A stretch of 7,301 bases of DNA. It comes from a virus (lineage: Duplodnaviria > Heunggongvirae > Uroviricota > Caudoviricetes). The stretch is from positions 1-7,301 of the IMG/VR virus record IMGVR_UViG_2703718791_000006; one strand, 5' to 3'. How positions within the stretch are numbered: position 1 is the stretch's first letter; the number at the start of each line of letters is the position of its first letter. Made by a program: the position numbers and the translations under genes. This document shows positions 1 through 7,301 of this stretch, in pieces. Below the pieces are notes generated by a model. It did no database searches and was not told the DNA's origin. It saw only the letters and a program-made list of their open reading frames with translations.

Positions 1-1
1 A

Positions 2-187
2 CACCCGCAAGGGCGGGACTCGCACAACCTGAATAAATACATCTGGCGCTTTATTGCCTTTGGCGCGTCAGAACGTCAAATCATCCACGTAACCGCCTGG
101 ACGGAACGCGAAGCGCGTAACCGTTGCCCGTCCGGTTGTGTTGCTGTATTCGCCGCCCGTATTCGTCAGGAGGTGCACCATGATTAA
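2..187 (+). CDS. 3' end of an upstream gene entering from the left edge (5'-partial); product unknown
   Basis: Frame 2 is the only frame open from the window edge to TAA at 185-187. Its stop overlaps the ATG at 180 of the next ORF (ATGATTAA), the arrangement expected for translational coupling. No start codon in window, no recognisable motif. Confidence 0.35.
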   Translation, partial: HPQGRDSHNLNKYIWRFIAFGASERQIIHVTAWTEREARNRCPSGCVAVFAARIRQEVHHD

Positions 188-392
188 TCTGTCACTTACT
201 GACCTTAACCGCATTCAGTTTCGTGAGAAATTCACAGGGCAGCTACTGGTCAATGTGGATAAAGGTCGCGTGGTGTGTAATTACCACTTACCAGATGAAG
301 CAATTGTCGCCACAAGGGAATCATTACAGGAAATCACAAAACGTGCCGGAATGATTAACACGAATATTCAGGGGATGCTTTATGCACAATAA
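180..392 (+). CDS. hypothetical small protein (70 aa from ATG 180)
   Basis: ATG at 180 lies 6 nt downstream of a perfect AGGAGG Shine-Dalgarno (168-173). The ORF track begins at GTG 138, but the SD favours ATG 180. Stop TAA 390-392 overlaps the next ORF start at 382. No recognisable family. Confidence 0.55.
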   Translation: MINLSLTDLNRIQFREKFTGQLLVNVDKGRVVCNYHLPDEAIVATRESLQEITKRAGMINTNIQGMLYAQ

Positions 393-612
393 AACCACAC
401 CGGACGCAGCAGAAGAAGCAATGCAAATACTGATACGTGCGCTCGTTGATGTTACCCACATGGTGGAGATTATGGAGAGAAAATCACAGTCGGAGCACGA
501 CAAAAGAAAACTTAAAACAATAAAAATAATTGCCAAAAACTCGCTGATAAAAGTTACAGACATCCTTAATGAGGACATTAAAAGAATAAGGGAGAAAATT
601 TGTGATGCATAA
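382..612 (+). CDS. hypothetical small protein, 76 aa, lysine-rich and predicted helical
   Basis: ATG 382 preceded by AGGGGA (369-374). Overlaps the upstream stop and the downstream start. The stretch is visibly AT-rich compared with neighbouring genes. No family recognised. Confidence 0.5.
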   Translation: MHNKTTPDAAEEAMQILIRALVDVTHMVEIMERKSQSEHDKRKLKTIKIIAKNSLIKVTDILNEDIKRIREKICDA

Positions 613-832
613 AATCCCTTTTGAAGTATTAATCCACTCTGAAAACGCATTAATTAAAGCGCGTGAAATGAATGCGTTGTTAATTAAATTAATTGAAGCA
701 ACGGAAGCTGGAGAAGAATCTTCGTCATTAATGCTTGCCGCCGTTCAGACATTACTATCGCCTGTAATTGATGAACTGGATAAGGCGATGGCAATTCACG
801 AAAATAATAACGCGCCCCACACCGGAGAATAA
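605..832 (+). CDS. hypothetical small protein, 75 aa, predicted helical
   Basis: ATG 605 preceded by GGGAGA (590-595); the track's start at 602 is a GTG. Overlaps the upstream stop at 610-612. Same size and helical character as the preceding ORF, so a tandem paralog is possible. Confidence 0.5.
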   Translation: MHKIPFEVLIHSENALIKAREMNALLIKLIEATEAGEESSSLMLAAVQTLLSPVIDELDKAMAIHENNNAPHTGE

Positions 833-837
833 AAATA

Positions 838-1137
838 ATGAAACTTAAATATTCTGGCTTAACTGCCAGTGGCAACACTCACCCTAAATTTACGCGCGGT
901 GATATTTACCGCGACCAGTACGGCGGCACGGTAATGATTAAGGGCGTGGCGGGACGGTGCGTAACTTACCGCCGTGAAGGTTACGAATATGATTGCGTGA
1001 TGCCTGTTTATCAGTTCCGGCGTGATTTTTCTCTGGTACAGACCGCGCCGCATAACGTGCCCACCAGCAACGCCAGGGCACGGGCAAACATCCAGAAGCT
1101 GAAAACCATGATTAACGTATTCAGGGGTAAAAAATGA
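838..1137 (+). CDS. hypothetical protein, 99 aa
   Basis: ATG 838 preceded by GGAG (824-827). Stop TGA 1135-1137 overlaps the helicase ATG at 1134 (ATGA coupling). No family recognised. Confidence 0.55.
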   Translation: MKLKYSGLTASGNTHPKFTRGDIYRDQYGGTVMIKGVAGRCVTYRREGYEYDCVMPVYQFRRDFSLVQTAPHNVPTSNARARANIQKLKTMINVFRGKK

Positions 1138-2882
1138 AACTGGCACCGAACGTAAAAAAACAGCCACGCGGAATAAAACACAAAGACACAGAGGTAATTA
1201 TCTTTGCGGGTAGTGATGCCTGGTCGCACGCGAAACAATGGCAGGAGCAGGATGGCCCCGCATCCGGCGATAATGTGCCGCCTGTGTGGCTTGGGCCAAA
1301 GCAGCTTGCCGAACTTGATGCGCTGAAAATTGTTCCGGATGGGAAAAAGCGCGTAAGGCTGTACCAGGCCGGAGAACTAGATTTAGTGGAGACCAAAAAG
1401 ATTGGTCAGAAGCTGGCGGCGGCAGATATTCAGGACGCAAATTTTTACCACGAAGGAATGCACGTCCAGAAGTGTGAAAACTGGCGGCGCTATCTGAATG
1501 CTGAGCGTGAAAATATTGCCGCAGGGCTTACCATGCCGGAGCAGAAAAATACGCAACTGGCACAAATGGCAGACAGTGAGCGCGCACAGATGCTTGCTGG
1601 TCGATTTGATGGCGTTTGTGTGCATCCGGAAAGTGAAATCGTTCACGTATGGCGCGGCGGGGTATGGTGTCCGGTCAGCACAATGGAACTTAGCCGCGAA
1701 ATGGTGGCGATCTATTCAGAGCACAGGGCCACTTTCAGCAAGCGCGTAATCAATAACGCCGTGGAAGCGTTAAAAGTTATTGCCGAACCAATGGGCGAGC
1801 CGTCCGGCGATTTGCTGCCGTTCGCCAATGGTGCGCTTGACCTGAAAACGGGGGAATTTTCCCCGCACACGCCGGAGAACTGGATCACCACGCACAACGG
1901 CATTGAGTACACGCCACCAGCACCAGGGGAGAATATCCGCGACAACGCGCCAAACTTTCATAAATGGCTTGAGCACGCAGCCGGAAAAGACCCGCGCAAG
2001 ATGATGCGTATATGTGCCGCGCTGTACATGATTATGGCGAACCGGTACGACTGGCAGATGTTTATTGAGGCCACCGGAGACGGCGGGAGCGGTAAAAGTA
2101 CATTCACACACATAGCCAGCCTTCTGGCAGGGAAACAGAACACGGTAAGCGCTGAAATGACATCGCTTGATGATGCTGGTGGACGTGCGCAGGTTGTCGG
2201 GAGTCGTCTTATCGTCCTGGCTGACCAGCCGAAATATACAGGCGAAGGAACGGGCATCAAGAAAATCACGGGCGGCGACCCCGTGGAAATTAACCCGAAA
2301 TATGAGAAGCGTTTTACGGCGGTAATCAGGGCGGTGGTGCTGGCTACCAACAATAACCCGATGATATTCACCGAACGGGCCGGAGGTGTGTCACGTCGTC
2401 GCGTAATTTTCCGTTTCGACAATATCGTCAGTGAGGCCGAAAAAGACAGGGAGCTACCGGAAAAGATTGCGGCTGAAATCCCTGTCATTATCCGCCGATT
2501 GCTGGCGAACTTTACCGACCCTGAGAAGGCACGGGCTTTACTACTGGAACAGCGTGACGGTGATGAAGCTCTGGCAATAAAGCAACAGACGGATCCGGTT
2601 ATTGAGTTTTGCCAGTTCCTGAATTTTCTGGAGGAAGCACGCGGCCTGATGATGGGCGGCGGTGGCGATTCAGTGAAGTACACGACCAGGAACAGCCTTT
2701 ACCGCGTCTATCTGGCGTTTATGGCATACGCAGGCAGGAGCAAACCGCTAAACGTGGCTGAGTTCAGCAAGGCCATGAAGCCAGCGGCGAAAGTTTACGG
2801 GCATGAATATATTACGCGAAAAGTTAAGGGAGTAACGCAGACCAACGCAATTACAACAGACGATTGCGACGCGTTTTTATAA
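1134..2882 (+). CDS. replication protein: P4-alpha / D5-type superfamily-3 helicase (phage/plasmid primase C-terminal-domain family)
   Basis: 582-aa ORF with Walker A GDGGSGKST (about nt 2079-2105) and a Walker B-like hydrophobic run ending in Asp (RLIVLADQ) in a central NTPase region, flanked by N- and C-terminal extensions as in P4-alpha/D5-family proteins. Last gene of a coupled operon and immediately followed by an iteron array. Whether a primase domain is present cannot be settled by eye. Confidence 0.7.
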   Translation: MKLAPNVKKQPRGIKHKDTEVIIFAGSDAWSHAKQWQEQDGPASGDNVPPVWLGPKQLAELDALKIVPDGKKRVRLYQAGELDLVETKKIGQKLAAADIQDANFYHEGMHVQKCENWRRYLNAERENIAAGLTMPEQKNTQLAQMADSERAQMLAGRFDGVCVHPESEIVHVWRGGVWCPVSTMELSREMVAIYSEHRATFSKRVINNAVEALKVIAEPMGEPSGDLLPFANGALDLKTGEFSPHTPENWITTHNGIEYTPPAPGENIRDNAPNFHKWLEHAAGKDPRKMMRICAALYMIMANRYDWQMFIEATGDGGSGKSTFTHIASLLAGKQNTVSAEMTSLDDAGGRAQVVGSRLIVLADQPKYTGEGTGIKKITGGDPVEINPKYEKRFTAVIRAVVLATNNNPMIFTERAGGVSRRRVIFRFDNIVSEAEKDRELPEKIAAEIPVIIRRLLANFTDPEKARALLLEQRDGDEALAIKQQTDPVIEFCQFLNFLEEARGLMMGGGGDSVKYTTRNSLYRVYLAFMAYAGRSKPLNVAEFSKAMKPAAKVYGHEYITRKVKGVTQTNAITTDDCDAFL

Positions 2883-2895
2883 TTTTTTGTAAAAG

Positions 2896-3124
2896 CCCTC
2901 TACCCCATCTACCTGAATGAAATAAACGCATATTATTCAACATGATAAGTGGGTAGAGGGCTAGGTAGAAGGCTAATAAAAGCTCTCTACCTCTTCTACC
3001 TGATTTTATCAGTTTCAGGTAGCAGGGTAGACGGCAGGTAGAGGAGCCCAAAAAGCTATCTACCCGCTGAAAGCCGCGCCATTACTGACATGATGAGCAT
3101 TCGGGTAGATGGGTAGAGGGGGGG
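2896..3124. repeat. iteron array, candidate satellite replication origin
   Basis: Twelve copies of GGTAGA or its complement TCTACC, often inside a longer GGGTAGAGG core. Top strand GGTAGA at 2952, 2964, 3026, 3037, 3104, 3112 and GGTAGC at 3018; TCTACC at 2899, 2908, 2986, 2995, 3059. Copies occur in pairs or triplets 9-12 bp apart, in alternating orientation blocks, with AT-rich stretches at 2915-2950 and 3125-3160. Sits between the helicase and the ssb operon. Confidence 0.6.
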
Positions 3125-3165
3125 AGGCACAACTAAAAACTTTTTAAACGAGGGGGTGAAAATAA

Positions 3166-3480
3166 ATGCGCATACATCAAAATCACTTAACAAACATGCC
3201 AGCCGAAAACATGAATCAGGGGCGACAAATGACCAAAATTCGCAGAGACAGAACAGAGCCAAAATATAAAGCGTTAGACATGACTGAGCATACCTTAAAG
3301 GTGGCAATCAGAACGATAGACCGCCACACGCGGGAAGGATACGCGAAGGAACATCCCGACCTGATAAGCGCATTCATGACCACAGCGGCGGCAAACTTTG
3401 CCACGCTGACAGAACGGGAGATTGCCGAAGCGGAACAGGTAACAACCATCAACGTTAAAACCGGAGAGGTGGAATCATGA
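3166..3480 (+). CDS. hypothetical protein, 104 aa, coupled to ssb
   Basis: ATG 3166 about 8 nt downstream of AGGGGGTG. Stop TGA 3478-3480 overlaps the ssb ATG at 3477. Alternative internal starts exist. No family recognised. Confidence 0.5.
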   Translation: MRIHQNHLTNMPAENMNQGRQMTKIRRDRTEPKYKALDMTEHTLKVAIRTIDRHTREGYAKEHPDLISAFMTTAAANFATLTEREIAEAEQVTTINVKTGEVES

Positions 3481-3887
3481 CAGCACAGATAGCCGCTTAC
3501 GGGCGGCTGGTGGACGACCCGCAGGTAAAACAGACCAGCAAGGGCACACCGATGACGCTGGCGCGTATGGCGGTCCCCCTTCCGTGCAGCCAGGCAGATG
3601 ACGGAACGGCTACGTTATGGCTATCGGTGATGGCATTTGGTAAGCAGGCCGACTTCCTGGCTAAACATCAAAAAGGCGACGTTGCCAGCATATCTGGCGT
3701 GATGCAGATAAGCCAGTGGACCGGACAGAACGGGGAAACGCGGCAGGGTTATCAGGTTATTGCAGACAGCGTAATCAGTGCCCGTGCGGCACGTCCTGGC
3801 GGGAACAGACGCAAAACCACAGGCGCACAGGGTAATCAGCCACCAGCGGGAGACGATGACCCCTACGGTGATGATATTCCGTTCTGA
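3477..3887 (+). CDS. ssb: single-stranded DNA-binding protein (short OB-fold SSB with acidic C-terminal tail)
   Basis: 136 aa. N-terminus GRLVDDPQV resembles E. coli SSB GNLGQDPEV, and an aromatic/Gly-Lys OB-fold block (WLSVMAFGKQA versus WHRVVLFGKLA) follows. A Gly/Pro/Gln-rich linker ends in DDDPYGDDIPF, the canonical SSB tail. Good SD (GGAGAGGTGG) upstream. Confidence 0.85.
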   Translation: MTAQIAAYGRLVDDPQVKQTSKGTPMTLARMAVPLPCSQADDGTATLWLSVMAFGKQADFLAKHQKGDVASISGVMQISQWTGQNGETRQGYQVIADSVISARAARPGGNRRKTTGAQGNQPPAGDDDPYGDDIPF

Positions 3888-3895
3888 ACGCACAG

Positions 3896-3919
3896 GCCGG
3901 AGAAAATCCGGCTTTTTGT
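3896..3919 (+). terminator. rho-independent terminator after ssb
   Basis: GCCGGA-gaaaa-TCCGGC hairpin (6-bp GC-rich stem) followed by TTTTT, 9 nt after the ssb stop. Confidence 0.6.
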
Positions 3920-3923
3920 ACCC

Positions 3924-3970
3924 AAAAAAAGCCCGATAAGTACAGGAGGAAGCTTATCGGGCTTTTGCTT
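3924..3970. terminator. second, possibly bidirectional, terminator hairpin
   Basis: 10-bp stem GCCCGATAAG/CTTATCGGGC with a 12-nt loop, A-run upstream (3924-3930) and TTTTG downstream. Confidence 0.45.
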
Positions 3971-4040
3971 ACGAGGTTAACAGCATGGTGACTACTGTTG
4001 CTGTAAATCATTTCATAATTTGCAACACAACTCAATTTTA

Positions 4041-4091
4041 TTGCGCAAAATGCAATCATGATTATAATCATAACTGGATGAACATCCAGTT
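4041..4091 (+). promoter_or_regulatory. candidate sigma70 promoter with two palindromic operators ahead of the capsid operon
   Basis: -35 TTGCGC (4041-4046), 16-bp spacer, -10 TATAAT (4063-4068). Perfect 14-bp palindrome ATGATTATAATCAT (4058-4071) overlaps the -10. Perfect 9-2-9 inverted repeat AACTGGATG-AA-CATCCAGTT (4072-4091) lies just downstream. Confidence 0.45.
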
Positions 4092-4124
4092 GTGATTTTT
4101 TAAGTCAAAGAGGAATTTCTGACT

Positions 4125-4331
4125 ATGGCAGAAGAGAAAAAAGGCGGTGTTTCGGTGTACATAAGCCCCGAAATCGTGGAGGTGCTCAAGCAGCGCCACA
4201 AAAAAAACTATGAGGCTGGCGTAGCGGCTGGACTGGATCCGCTGATGACGCCGGAGCCGTCGATAGGTTCACTTGTGCGCTCTTATTTACTTGCGGCGCT
4301 TGGGATGCATAAAAATTATGGGGGTGAATAA
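4125..4331 (+). CDS. hypothetical small protein, 68 aa; possible ribbon-helix-helix DNA-binding protein
   Basis: N-terminal GGVSVYISPEIVEVLKQ fits a beta-strand plus helix pattern as in Arc/CopG-type RHH proteins, and a second helix SIGSLVRSYLLAALG follows. Stop TAA 4329-4331 overlaps the capsid ATG (TAATG). The fold assignment is a guess from sequence pattern only. Confidence 0.5.
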   Translation: MAEEKKGGVSVYISPEIVEVLKQRHKKNYEAGVAAGLDPLMTPEPSIGSLVRSYLLAALGMHKNYGGE

Positions 4332-5386
4332 TGGCAGGCAAAGCAACGGCACTTAACACTAACCAGCTTTTTGCGTACCTGAATCGCGGGGATATTGCGG
4401 AATTTAAATTTAGTCCGCTGTTTACCACGCTGTTTTTCCCGAAAGTAGCGACATTCAACACCCAAAACATCATGCTGGATAACCTGGACACCGAAGAAGT
4501 CACTATGTCAGCGTTTTGCTCGCCTATGGTTGGTAGCCAGGTACAGCGCGATAAAGGGTACGAAACCAGCACGATTAAACCTGGCTACATGAAGCCAAAG
4601 CACGAAATCGATCCAACAAAAACCATCATGCGCATGGCTGGAGAAGATCCGGCACAGCTTAACGACCCAACCTATCGCCGTATGCGCCTGATTACTGGCA
4701 ACATGCGCCGCCAGGTAAACGCTATTAAAGCGCGTGTTGAATGGCTGGCGGTAAATGCGGTAACGACCGGAAAAAACATCATTGAGGGCGAAGGCATAGA
4801 GCGCTATGAAATCGACTGGAAGATACCGGAAAAAAACATCATAGAGCAGGCCGACGGGAAAAAATGGTCAGAGCAGGACAAAGAAACCCACGATCCAATC
4901 TATGATATCGAACTATACGCCGATCAGGCTGGTTGCCCCGCAAACGTCATGATTATGGGCGCTGAGGTATGGCGAACGTTACGCAGCTTTAAAAAATTCC
5001 GTGAGCTGTACGATCTTTCCCGTGGTTCAGAGTCCGCCGCAGAGCTGGCCTGTAAAAACCTGGGCGAAGTGGTGAGCTTTAAAGGCTATCTGGGCGATAT
5101 TGCCCTTATCGTCTATTCCGGCAAATACGCCGACAGCGACGGCACCGAAAAACATTTCCTTGAGCCTGATTTGCTGGTCTTGGGCAACACCAACAATAAA
5201 GGGCTGGTTGCTTATGGTGCGATTATGGATCAGGAAGCGGTAAGAACGGGCGCAACGCAAAACATGTACTACCCGAAAAACTGGATTGAGGACGGCGATC
5301 CGGCGATTGAGTACGTGCAGACGCACAGCGCACCGCAGCCGGTGCCGGCAGACATTCGCAAATTTGTTACCGTCAAAATTGGTTAA
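4331..5386 (+). CDS. major capsid protein, lambda gpE family (HK97 fold)
   Basis: 351 aa, colinear over its full length with lambda gpE (341 aa) as recalled. Conserved blocks: FKFSPLF versus FKFDPLF; PGYMKPKHEIDP versus PGYVKPKHEVNP; DPTYRRMRLITGNMR versus DPAYRRRRIIMQNMR; RGSESAAELACKNLGEVVSFKGYLGDIALIVYSGKY versus RGSNSELETAVKDLGKAVSYKGMYGDVAIVVYSGQY; YPKNWIEDGDPAIEY versus YPKNWVTTGDPAREF. SD GGGGTGA upstream. Confidence 0.9.
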   Translation: MAGKATALNTNQLFAYLNRGDIAEFKFSPLFTTLFFPKVATFNTQNIMLDNLDTEEVTMSAFCSPMVGSQVQRDKGYETSTIKPGYMKPKHEIDPTKTIMRMAGEDPAQLNDPTYRRMRLITGNMRRQVNAIKARVEWLAVNAVTTGKNIIEGEGIERYEIDWKIPEKNIIEQADGKKWSEQDKETHDPIYDIELYADQAGCPANVMIMGAEVWRTLRSFKKFRELYDLSRGSESAAELACKNLGEVVSFKGYLGDIALIVYSGKYADSDGTEKHFLEPDLLVLGNTNNKGLVAYGAIMDQEAVRTGATQNMYYPKNWIEDGDPAIEYVQTHSAPQPVPADIRKFVTVKIG

Positions 5387-5397
5387 CGGGGGATTCT

Positions 5398-5733
5398 ATG
5401 AACACTCCATACATTGAGTTATTTGCAGGCAGTCAGCAGGTATCCACGACGCTGGTACATTTTGCCGCTGATGCTGGCGTCATTCAGGAATTTACCCCGC
5501 TGATGCTGGCGGACAATGGCGAGTTTAAGCCGTGGGATGGTCAGGCGTCCGGAAAGGCTGTTTATCTGACTTCGTACCCCGTGGACACGTCAAAGCAGAA
5601 ATCAGCACAGTGCTACAAGACGGGGATCTTTAATATCGCCGCCGTGAACTGGCCCGAGAGCGTCGACACCGATGCGAAAAAATGCGCCGCCTTTGCGGGT
5701 TCTGGCGTATCCGTTCAGCCGCTGGCCCGATAA
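5398..5733 (+). CDS. head decoration protein, lambda gpD family
   Basis: 111 aa versus gpD 110 aa. Shared blocks: TPLMLAD / TPLMLD, WDG, YKTGIFN..WPE / YKSGTF..WPE, KKCAAFAGSG / KKRTAFAGT. SD GGGGGAT upstream. Gene order is capsid then decoration, the reverse of lambda's D then E. Confidence 0.8.
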   Translation: MNTPYIELFAGSQQVSTTLVHFAADAGVIQEFTPLMLADNGEFKPWDGQASGKAVYLTSYPVDTSKQKSAQCYKTGIFNIAAVNWPESVDTDAKKCAAFAGSGVSVQPLAR

Positions 5734-5745
5734 GCAGGGGGAACG

Positions 5746-6159
5746 ATGGCAACGAATGAAAGCATCATGACGCTACCGCTGGCGAGTAAATTTAAAGCCG
5801 AAGCGCGAGCAATGGCTGACAGAGGTTTATCAACCTACGAGGCCGTATATCAACTCAACAAACTGGAAGAGCAGGACAAGCCGCGCGCTGATGCGATTAT
5901 GGCGCTTCATGAGCATAACGACTATCAGCCGCTGTTACGTGCAATGGCAAACGTGCCTTGTATCGATGTTGGTACGGCTAAAAGCATCCTTAGCATGACC
6001 ATAGAGCAGGAACGCCAGAAGGTTGCGCCGGAGCTTACCGCAGCCTTTGAAAACTTTATGGACATGCACAGCCCGCAAGCCGTTTCAGCTGGCATGGCAT
6101 ACGACGGCAGAAACCCGGGCGATGATGGCGACATCGAGCGCATACTGAAAACCATCTGA
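5746..6159 (+). CDS. hypothetical protein, 137 aa, last gene of the capsid operon
   Basis: Strong SD AGGGGGA before ATG 5746 and a terminator directly after the stop. No convincing similarity to lambda FI, FII or Nu3 as recalled. Confidence 0.6.
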   Translation: MATNESIMTLPLASKFKAEARAMADRGLSTYEAVYQLNKLEEQDKPRADAIMALHEHNDYQPLLRAMANVPCIDVGTAKSILSMTIEQERQKVAPELTAAFENFMDMHSPQAVSAGMAYDGRNPGDDGDIERILKTI

Positions 6160-6165
6160 GACAAG

Positions 6166-6188
6166 GCCGGAGAAATCCGGCTTTTTTT
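6166..6188 (+). terminator. rho-independent terminator after the capsid operon, abutting cosQ
   Basis: GCCGGA-gaaa-TCCGGC hairpin followed by TTTTTTT. Near-identical to the terminator at 3896-3919. Confidence 0.6.
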
Positions 6189-6265
6189 ACGGGTCCTTTC
6201 CGGCATATGGACCCGTTACGGGGCGGCGACCTCGCGGTTTTTCGCTATTTATGACGTTTTTCCGT
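6187..6265 (+). other. lambda-type cos site, copy 1 (cosQ, cosN, I2-like proximal cosB)
   Basis: TTTACGGGTCCTTTCCGG (6187-6204) matches the lambda right-end cosQ region. GGGCGGCGACCT (6221-6232) is identical to the lambda 12-nt cohesive end, and the 17-bp spacing between them is kept. The following CGCGGTTTTTCGCTATTTATGA closely matches the lambda left end CGCGGGTTTTCGCTATTTATGA. No ATGTCCGGTT-type repeats before the terS start. Confidence 0.75.
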
Positions 6266-6269
6266 GAAG

Positions 6270-6296
6270 GTGACACCACCACCACTTGATTAATAT
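6270..6296 (+). promoter_or_regulatory. weak candidate promoter for the small terminase gene
   Basis: GTGACA (6270-6275), about 15-bp spacer, TAATAT (6291-6296). The alternative TTGATT (6286-6291) has a poor -10. Low confidence. Confidence 0.25.
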
Positions 6297-6321
6297 TTAA
6301 CCATGTAGTTAAGGTAACATT

Positions 6322-6756
6322 ATGATTGATAAAGCTTGTTTTGTAAGTCAGCAGGAAATAGCTGAACATTTCAAGGTTAACAGAACCACTATTCGCGCAT
6401 GGACCAAACAGGGGATGCCGTATCTTAATGCGGATCGCGGAAAGTCCGGCGGTTATCACATCGGGCATACATTGCTTTGGTCTTCAGGTAAAAGCCATCT
6501 TGAGGCCATTGGATATCACGTAGAAACCAGTGCGCTGGAAAAAATTATGTTTGCCAGGCTGCTTTCATCTGAGCGTGACGAGTACTCCAGTGAAGAAACA
6601 GAACATCGATTTGATGAAGGTTTGCAGATTTACGGATATTCACCGGAAGATGTGAGCAAGGCACGAAATAAAATGGCTGGCTTTCTGGCTGGGTGGCGTC
6701 ATGCCGTAAGCGTTCGCCGTGCCAGCATGGAGCAATCAGCCGATACAGAACAGTAA
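6322..6756 (+). CDS. small terminase-like protein, phage Nu1 family (N-terminal winged-HTH DNA-binding domain)
   Basis: 144 aa. N-terminus SQQEIAEHFKVNRTTIRAWTKQGMPYL parallels lambda Nu1 KKQLADIFGASIRTIQNWQEQGMPVL. It is shorter than Nu1 (181 aa) and diverges after the HTH. It sits about 90 bp downstream of the cos copy 1 cohesive end, where lambda has Nu1. Confidence 0.75.
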   Translation: MIDKACFVSQQEIAEHFKVNRTTIRAWTKQGMPYLNADRGKSGGYHIGHTLLWSSGKSHLEAIGYHVETSALEKIMFARLLSSERDEYSSEETEHRFDEGLQIYGYSPEDVSKARNKMAGFLAGWRHAVSVRRASMEQSADTEQ

Positions 6757-6824
6757 AGCCGATAACTTGTTAATCACTCGCAGCAATGCATGTGATTTGT
6801 GCACACTTTCGGTTAACTGGTTCG

Positions 6825-6921
6825 ATGTCCGGTTTTAGTGTCTGTTTTTTGCGCATGTCCGGTTCATGGAAAGCATGTTTTTATATTTTTCATATGGTTA
6901 ACTTGCAGAGAAACCGGACAT
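6825..6921. repeat. three 10-bp ATGTCCGGTT repeats in a cosB-like R-I-R-R layout (candidate small-terminase binding sites)
   Basis: ATGTCCGGTT at 6825-6834 and 6855-6864 on the top strand and inverted (AACCGGACAT) at 6912-6921, with an AT-rich stretch (about 6876-6896) between the direct pair and the inverted copy. GGTTAACT also recurs at 6810 and 6895. Lies between the terS stop and the inverted cohesive-end sequence. Confidence 0.5.
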
Positions 6922-6924
6922 GGA

Positions 6925-7003
6925 TCCCGAAAAATTTTCATAAATAGTGAAAACGCGCGAGGTCGCCGCCCCGTAACGGGCCATAATTCCAGGAAGGACC
7001 CGA
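6925..7003 (-). other. second lambda-type cos site, inverted (cosQ-like, cosN, I2-like)
   Basis: Bottom strand reads CGGGTCCTTCCTGG..CGTTACG-GGGCGGCGACCT-CGCGCGTTTTCACTATTTATGAAAATTTTT. The cohesive-end 12-mer occupies 6960-6971 on the minus strand. 6956-6980 is a perfect 25-bp inverted repeat of 6212-6236, with imperfect similarity continuing on both sides. The cosQ-like element differs from lambda at a few positions. Confidence 0.65.
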
Positions 7004-7035
7004 CGACACCAGGCTATCAGAACGATGGGGGCACA

Positions 7036-7301
7036 ATGACAGAAGCCGAACTACTGCGATTAATCCGCCGCGTTACCGGAATCAGCCAGCAGCATGACGA
7101 ACAGGGCACGCAACCGGACAGCGTGACCGCTGAAAATTATGCGCGTGTTGTTGCTGAGGTGATGCGCCGTGATGGTATTGAGCTTAACGGCGTGGATATG
7201 CGCAACATACGAACCAGAGTCCTTGAGTTGCTGGCATACCGTCGCCGCGTGGAGATGTATCGGGAGAAGGAGAAAATCACGTACCACTGGAAGAAGCCGG
7301 A
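7036..7301 (+). CDS. 5' part of an ORF running off the right edge; product unknown
   Basis: ATG 7036 preceded by GATGGGGG, open in frame 1 to the window end (MTEAELLRLIRRVTGISQQHDEQ...). Not in the ORF track because it has no stop in window. No match to the lambda gpA N-terminus; resemblance to the lambda FI N-terminus is too weak to call. Confidence 0.45.
   Translation, partial: MTEAELLRLIRRVTGISQQHDEQGTQPDSVTAENYARVVAEVMRRDGIELNGVDMRNIRTRVLELLAYRRRVEMYREKEKITYHWKKP

Follow-up and report, generated by a model that had tools for sequence, protein, structure and literature searches.

The GGTAGA iteron array 3′ of pri-rep as a probable replication origin of EcCICFT073-family phage-parasitic islands

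The stretch of DNA analysed here (the window; 7,301 bp, positions 1 to 7,301 of IMG/VR record IMGVR_UViG_2703718791_000006) is an EcCICFT073-type phage-parasitic island (PICI) of Escherichia coli. Its gene order is that of EcCICFT073: a DUF4222 gene, the initiator gene pri-rep, an array of short iterons, a small open reading frame (ORF), ssb, a λ E-like capsid gene, a D-like decoration gene and cos (Table 1). The nearest full islands are about 11.5 kb long and carry int, an HTH regulator, an Icd-like gene, DUF4222, pri-rep, the array, the small ORF, ssb, and capsid and decoration genes. Through these full islands, and through the λ-type cos sequence of the window itself, the element agrees with the usual description of a PICI (an integrase, an AlpA-type regulator, a one-directional operon, a helper cos and a size of about 10–15 kb). 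EcCICFT073, the prototype of Gram-negative PICIs, is located in strain CFT073 (L013, 27931–38655), and the decoration protein of a closely related island in strain SMBL has the same RefSeq accession as that of EcCICFT073.

Table 1 Features of the origin region and of the neighbouring genes, in window coordinates. Conservation values refer to 28 distinct origin sequences.
Feature	Position	Strand	Remarks
pri-rep, initiator and SF3 helicase, 582 aa	1134–2882	+	Pfam, TIGR01613, 7OLA and 1KA8 matches
Putative origin-binding domain, Pri-Rep codons 486–574	2589–2855	+	phmmer match to 1KA8
Candidate specificity residues A542 and S545 (codons 542–545, A-E-F-S)	2757–2768	+	N542/G545 in EcCICFT073
Iterons 1 and 2	2899–2904, 2908–2913	−	Left of AT-rich spacer; conservation 1.00, 0.99
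AT-rich spacer, presumed unwinding site	2914–2951 (38 bp)		26% GC
Iterons 3 and 4	2952–2957, 2964–2969	+	Right of AT-rich spacer; region of inter-allele site turnover
Iterons 5 and 6	2986–2991, 2995–3000	−	Conservation 0.98 each
Iterons 7–9	3018–3023 (GGTAGC), 3026–3031, 3037–3042	+	Conservation 0.76, 1.00, 0.99
Iteron 10	3059–3064	−	Invariant
Conserved non-iteron block GCTGAAAGCCGCGCCATTACTGA	3066–3088	+	Between iteron 10 and iterons 11 and 12
Iterons 11 and 12	3104–3109, 3112–3117	+	Conservation 0.92, 1.00
104-aa protein, first gene after the origin	3166–3480	+	RBS GAGGGGG 7–8 nt upstream
PICI-encoded ssb, second gene after the array	3477–3887	+	Pfam SSB, E = 3.5e-15; TIGR00621
λ cohesive-end sequence GGGCGGCGACCT, two exact inverted copies	6221–6232, 6960–6971	+, −	

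Pri-Rep, named 'DNA primase family protein' in RefSeq, has at the sequence level the make-up of an SF3 helicase that ends in a winged-helix-like domain. It matches the Pfam families D5_N (residues 151–280), DUF5906, a P-loop helicase (residues 314–415), and Pox_D5 (residues 485–573), as well as TIGR01613, the C-terminal domain of P4-family primases. Residues 193–430 match the staphylococcal self-loading helicase (PDB 7OLA; E = 6e-15). Following the helicase is the putative origin-binding domain, which aligns with chain residues 2–89 of a C-terminal fragment of the P4 α protein (PDB 1KA8; phmmer E = 8e-6), a fragment that we take to be the origin-binding domain of α. A single-sequence AF2 model of residues 464–582 places helices at 488–504, 519–532 and 541–555; owing to its low confidence (pLDDT 56), it is used for helix positions only.

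Pri-Rep of the window is 91% identical to that of EcCICFT073, and 68% identical over the N-terminal 150 residues. This N-terminal part (about 150 aa, window 1134–1583) is the most variable in the protein, with 42–68% identity between islands whose remaining Pri-Rep sequence is 91–99% identical. No primase domain is detected in Pri-Rep, the N-terminal 150–160 residues matching no Pfam or NCBIfam family, and the island may therefore rely on a host priming route.

The iteron array takes up all the DNA from the pri-rep stop codon (2882) to where the ribosome-binding site of the ORF starting at 3166 lies, its first iteron lying 17 nt past the stop. Counting both strands, GGTAGA occurs 11 times within 2899–3117 and nowhere else in the window; in 200 dinucleotide-preserving shuffles the mean count was 1.58 and the maximum 5, none reaching 11. 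A twelfth copy, at 3018, is degenerate (GGTAGC), and the twelve hexamers counted in a first-pass annotation of this DNA are thus eleven exact copies and one variant. The alternating orientation blocks that it described within about 230 bp are indeed seen, in the order (− −), AT-rich spacer, (+ +), (− −), (+ + +), (−), conserved block, (+ +), with hexamer start-to-start spacings of 9, 44, 12, 22, 9, 23, 8, 11, 22, 45 and 8 bp. The favoured unit exceeds six bases and reads R-GGTAGA-N-G-G, about 9 bp in length. Superimposed on this pattern is a higher-order repeat of about 87 bp (families D2 and D5), in which iterons 5 and 6 are paired with positions 2890–2916 (family D2).

The first-pass annotation also had AT-rich DNA flanking the array. 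Such DNA lies mostly inside it, in the spacer between iterons 2 and 3 (26% GC, compared with 50% for the whole window), although the 5′ edge is AT-rich as well (2870–2898, 31% GC). Separating iteron 10 from iteron 11 is a GC-richer spacer of 39 bp, which holds the conserved block. As for the placement of the array between the helicase gene and ssb, it does lie directly 3′ of the helicase gene, but the 104-aa ORF intervenes before ssb. Two minus-strand ORFs crossing the region (2851–3051 and 3056–3307) are not conserved in CFT073 and were rejected as coding sequences. An Rfam scan of 2700–3400 returned a single sub-threshold match to a plant miRNA, which is noise.

The 104-aa protein encoded downstream matches no Pfam or NCBIfam family. 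Its start is most likely at 3166. In RefSeq, the SMBL orthologue begins at an internal ATG 63 nt later, and the CFT073 and Nissle annotations use an upstream start beside the conserved ribosome-binding region. At the far end of the window, the pair of GGGCGGCGACCT copies flanks a 144-aa HTH-like ORF (6322–6756). The two cos sites seem to be already known, as EcCICFT073 mutants 'delta-cos.1' and 'delta-cos.2' appear in a supplementary strain list (PMC6092414).

The window as a whole is a mosaic. Its best complete-genome match covers 99% of positions 1–7301, with identity no higher than 97%, and 2,303 of 5,426 complete E. coli genomes match parts of the window. In related islands, the same pri-rep–origin module is joined to differing capsid modules, which comprise a λ E-like capsid with decoration protein, an HK97-like capsid with prohead protease and portal, or a protease–capsid fusion.

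Comparison of the repeats across related islands, which had been proposed as a check, reveals close correspondence. In the same intergenic region EcCICFT073 has GGTAGA 11 times, at offsets that agree with those of the window; its AT-rich spacer is in the same position, and the conserved block and ribosome-binding region are likewise in place. A set of 28 distinct origin sequences was assembled from E. coli genomes and IMG/VR contigs; in this set 50 of the 72 iteron core columns are invariant (mean conservation 0.91), as are 37 of the 150 non-core columns of the array (mean conservation 0.73). The AT-rich spacer has kept its composition in these relatives while its sequence has diverged. In a more distant island (L010, Pri-Rep 79% identical), the iteron cores are kept though megablast fails to align the spacer DNA. 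This pattern suggests that the iteron repeats are under selection.

The orthologous fragment of EcCICFT073 has been studied experimentally. Fillol-Salom et al. (2018, ISME J) compared pK03-Blue plasmids carrying pri-ori, pri-Δori or Δpri-ori of this island (PMC6092414). Deletion of pri and deletion of ori each significantly cut plasmid maintenance at the restrictive temperature, the ori deletion lowering colony numbers without abolishing them (PMC6092414). Placed on the CFT073 sequence, the primers of that study show that the Δori construct ends 4 nt past the pri-rep stop and that the one with ori runs on to about 20 nt inside the next ORF (the primer as printed has one mismatch). The 'ori' tested in EcCICFT073, equivalent to window positions of about 2887–3187, is therefore exactly this intergenic array. 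Replication of a cloned fragment, suggested earlier as a test of the candidate origin, has in essence already been assayed on the EcCICFT073 orthologue (PMC6092414). Pri-Rep-dependent maintenance through the intergenic fragment is a literature result for that orthologue and a prediction for the window allele.

The design of the array is that of known origins. PICI and SaPI origins have an AT-rich region with oppositely oriented iterons on either side (PMC6092414, PMC9371898), and the iterons that SaPI Reps bind, 6–12 penta- or hexanucleotides situated immediately 3′ of rep, surround a central AT-rich region (PMC9371898). The window array likewise lies immediately 3′ of its initiator gene, its number of short iterons falls within the range of 6–12, and opposed pairs flank the AT-rich spacer (2899− and 2908− on the left, 2952+ and 2964+ on the right), giving at least two iterons on each side. 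The proteins correspond as well: SaPI Rep is an SF3 helicase ending in a winged helix, and its helicase core (7OLA) is homologous to that of Pri-Rep. Distinct from the SaPI case are the Gram-negative host, the iteron sequence, the additional conserved non-iteron block and the off-centre position of the AT-rich region, which has 2 iterons on its left and 10 on its right.

We conclude that the array (2883–3165) is very probably the vegetative replication origin of the EcCICFT073-family PICI. The earlier proposal of a candidate origin is supported by how the array is built and conserved, by its orthology with EcCICFT073, by the domains of Pri-Rep and by the plasmid test of the orthologue. After induction, Pri-Rep would bind the iterons, of about 9 bp (R-GGTAGA-N-GG), through its C-terminal winged-helix-like domain, a role that we infer by analogy with P4 α and the SaPI Reps. 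It would then load itself onto opposed iteron pairs, assembling there into an SF3 helicase hexamer, and open the AT-rich 38-bp spacer 2914–2951, the presumptive site of DNA melting.

This finding is correct but largely ordinary, as this design of E. coli PICI origin has been in the literature since 2018, when the orthologous fragment was also tested; the window holds a new allele of an origin of a known, experimentally supported kind. It is a useful annotation nonetheless. A match to the 401 bp around the array is found in 525 of 5,426 complete E. coli genomes (about 10%), and the origin region is unannotated in RefSeq. Worth following up are the pairing of two protein residues with two iteron positions and the block shared with other origins, both described below.

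The likeness to P4 is partial. In P4 (NC_001609), the element directly 3′ of the α gene is crr (4291–4590), and ori (9086–9809) is about 4.5 kb away, so that the organisation attributed in the first-pass annotation to SaPI, PICI and P4 origins alike holds for the former two and not for P4. Shared with P4 are the homologous helicase and C-terminal origin-binding domain (1KA8) and the use of short iterons in mixed orientation. The α protein, of 777 aa, combines primase, helicase and origin-binding functions, whereas in the 582-aa Pri-Rep a helicase and an origin-binding domain are detected. The iterons of the window are not the annotated P4 type 1 repeat TGTTCACC, the complement of the window repeat reading (C/T)CTCTACC, and P4 lacks the conserved block. 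The motif does differ from the P4 octamer, but only modestly, TGTCTACC of the CFT073 allele matching TGTTCACC at 6 of 8 positions.

P4-type iterons are found instead in more distant relatives of the island. Next to the Pri-Rep homologue of Serratia aquatilis (53% identity; L015, 4268–4581) are 9 copies of TGTTCAC, and next to that of Morganella morganii (52% identity; L016, 3854–4140) are 10 copies of TGTTCAT, both at the same position as the window array and in a similar arrangement, with a similar orientation pattern about an AT-rich spacer. These sequences are the P4 type 1 iteron or near it, and their presence in these relatives appears to be new. Protein and iteron change together, as an initiator and its origin should, in a small non-E. 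coli sample of three loci from a single-protein contig scan.

Other functions of the array were weighed against that of an origin. Filling as it does the whole gap between two co-oriented genes, the array could mainly be an operator, through which Pri-Rep or another regulator controls transcription that continues from pri-rep into the genes beyond it (the small ORF, ssb and capsid genes), and iteron-binding plasmid initiators often autoregulate. A scan of 2700–3300 found no sigma-70-like promoter and no intrinsic terminator, and both the inverted iteron pairs about an AT-rich core and the replication phenotype of the orthologue favour an origin, making a mainly regulatory role unlikely, though the array may regulate transcription on the side. 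Still less likely is that the array is a cis-acting enhancer, equivalent to P4 crr, looping to a separate origin elsewhere in the island. Its position immediately 3′ of the initiator gene is that of the crr iteron cluster, with the P4 ori about 4.5 kb off, and the higher-order repeat of about 87 bp recalls the duplicated 120-bp unit of crr. However, where P4 has two separated iteron clusters, ori and crr, the whole island of about 11.5 kb has a single GGTAGA cluster and one isolated copy inside int, and pri-rep with the intergenic fragment of EcCICFT073 was alone sufficient to sustain a plasmid (PMC6092414). With its single cluster, the PICI therefore resembles a merged ori and falls outside the bipartite design of P4.

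Satellites carry helper packaging sites, and the array might on that general ground be a cos or pac signal, although nothing specific points to it and the λ-type GGGCGGCGACCT sits elsewhere, at 6221 and 6960. Nor is the array a common intergenic repeat unrelated to replication, the outcome that would have spoken against the first-pass annotation: its 555 matches in complete E. coli genomes are all chromosomal, each of the matches listed overlaps a gene annotated as primase family, and in distant relatives the iteron cores co-vary with the adjacent protein. The position of cos, the linkage to primase genes and this co-variation effectively refute a packaging signal or generic repeat, the most improbable of the alternatives. 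An origin remains the preferred reading of the array.

The origin exists in two alleles. In type G, found in the window and in L004–L006, position 8 of the unit is G in nearly all copies (GGTAGA-N-GG); in type A, found in CFT073, Nissle 1917, a Shigella flexneri island and others, it is A (GGTAGA-Y-AG). The alleles also differ by turnover of sites: one iteron is at offset 82 (+) in the window and at 94 (−) in CFT073, and so differs in both position and orientation, and the window has the additional degenerate site at 3018.

Pri-Rep tracks the two alleles at just two positions. When 11 Pri-Rep sequences are aligned, the types are separated by columns 542 (A in type G, N in type A) and 545 (S in type G, G in type A) and by no others, both columns being within the domain that matches 1KA8. 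At the nucleotide level, only positions 2757, 2758 and 2766 in the last 420 nt of pri-rep segregate with the type of array, and the 116 bp from codon 545 to the array contain variable sites of which none, synonymous ones included, segregates. Among the 28 distinct origins, A542/S545 accompanies a type G array in 16 and N542/G545 a type A array in 11. The one exception, an IMG/VR contig (L080), is a natural hybrid, in which A542/S545 is combined with a GGTAGA-Y-AG array. Overall similarity of the protein does not follow this pairing. Pri-Rep of the Shigella island is 98% identical to that of the window, yet has N542/G545 and a type A array, and Pri-Rep of L005 is 96% identical to that of CFT073, yet has A542/S545 and a type G array. 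As far as these sequences go, the rest of Pri-Rep is uncoupled from the type of array.

The low-confidence AF2 model (pLDDT 56) puts residues 542 and 545 at the start of the third helix (541–555), where the recognition helix of a winged-helix domain would be expected. We infer that A542 and S545 set the preference for G-G at iteron positions 8–9, in which case two residues would be the switch of iteron preference between GGTAGA-N-GG and GGTAGA-Y-AG. The evidence that residues 542/545 and the iteron type are co-adapted is suggestive and not proof, owing to the distance of only about 120 bp between these codons and the array and to the phylogenetic non-independence of the sequences; the association could in part reflect physical linkage. 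The pairing of two origin alleles with two residues appears to be new, and it provides a compact entry point for asking how origins are recognised by SF3 initiators and which co-resident PICIs are compatible.

The best-conserved stretch of the array outside the iterons is GCTGAAAGCCGCGCCATTACTG (3066–3087), with a 17-bp core, AAGCCGCGCCATTACTG, at 3071–3087. All E. coli relatives retrieved independently of the block as a query have it with no more than two changes. An exact-pattern scan of IMG/VR for the block identified at least 120 loci, two thirds of them other than this PICI, and at many of these loci the block lies amid unrelated iteron arrays.

Five classes of such arrays lie inside lambdoid O genes (Pfam Phage_rep_O), with iterons CATGTGCGG, AYGCKCGG, ATGCGCGG, GGTTCATCG and GGTTCGACG. 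The lambdoid O-gene origin sits inside coding sequence, and the block there encodes SNGAA on the opposite strand; it is kept at the DNA level though coding only for SNGAA. The block is also found at a locus encoding a Toprim primase and an SF3 helicase (L049), at one encoding an AAA_25 protein (L030) and at several further loci. Those at which it lies by iterons, other satellite-like replicons among them, include L026, L022, L031, L098, L100, L030, L049, L033, L118, L138, L140 and L146. Significantly repeated 7-mers flank the block in 10 of 23 distinct contexts.

Plasmids carry variants of the same sequence. Both the P1-like phage-plasmid SJ46 and an IncHI1B-type plasmid have a one-nucleotide variant 160–200 bp ahead of the initiator gene, repA; in the IncHI1B-type plasmid it lies with a DnaA box and GATC-rich region to one side and five iterons to the other. 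A block variant occurs in more than 1,400 mostly Klebsiella plasmids, the one copy inspected being without nearby iterons. Downstream of rep in ColE2-type plasmids is a partial copy, beside a sequence that presumably resembles the ColE1 primosome-assembly site. Like the window array, the lambdoid O-gene origins and the P1-type oriR are iteron origins, many of them containing AAGCCGCGCCATTACTG or its one-nucleotide variant among or beside the iterons, but their initiators (Phage_rep_O and the RepA/RepB family) and iterons are unrelated to those of the island. Other matches to the block have no flanking repeats: one follows an HNH gene, some lie near P2/186-like cos sites and several are singletons. 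These may be chance matches to a 17-mer, of which a rough estimate predicts about 10–20 in the scanned collection, and they are for that reason left uninterpreted.

The recurrence of the block in unrelated iteron arrays appears to be new. A search of the open-access literature found no description of it, only general mentions of ssi sites beside iterons (pHW126-like plasmids), there is no Rfam family for it, and a paper on the replication region of Stx phages (PMC8044961) does not describe the origins.

A resemblance of the block to the G4 priming site was examined and rejected. The block matches the annotated primer start of G4, GAAAGCCGC...TACTG, at 16 of 20 positions, the G4 primer starting at a CTG that follows stem-loop I. 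In a local alignment to the whole G4 genome, however, its best match falls at another place, and the score of the block is equalled or exceeded by 90 of 300 shuffled queries. The α3 and St-1 controls are unsupportive too, with 168 and 18 of 300 shuffles, respectively, reaching the observed score and best matches outside the G–H intergenic region. No consistent hairpin is formed by the PICI copies of the block, and when plasmids and phages were searched by BLAST with the complementary-strand origin of G4, only G4-like microviruses and weak matches came up. The resemblance is within chance, and with the genome-wide shuffled-query control failed, a G4-type DnaG priming site is kept as speculation only.

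One tentative interpretation, which we consider possible though on balance doubtful, is that the block is a portable, initiator-independent origin module, perhaps a site of entry or priming for a host replication protein, that has been exchanged among unrelated origins. Such a role would fit with the lack of a recognisable primase domain in Pri-Rep. If functional, the shared 17-bp block would indicate a common host-dependent step in the start of replication across phages, satellites and plasmids. In the P4 ori (L143, about 9340–9348), the 8-mer CATTACTG, equal to the 3′ half of the block, lies in the short spacer separating opposed type 1 iterons, a match that may well be due to chance.
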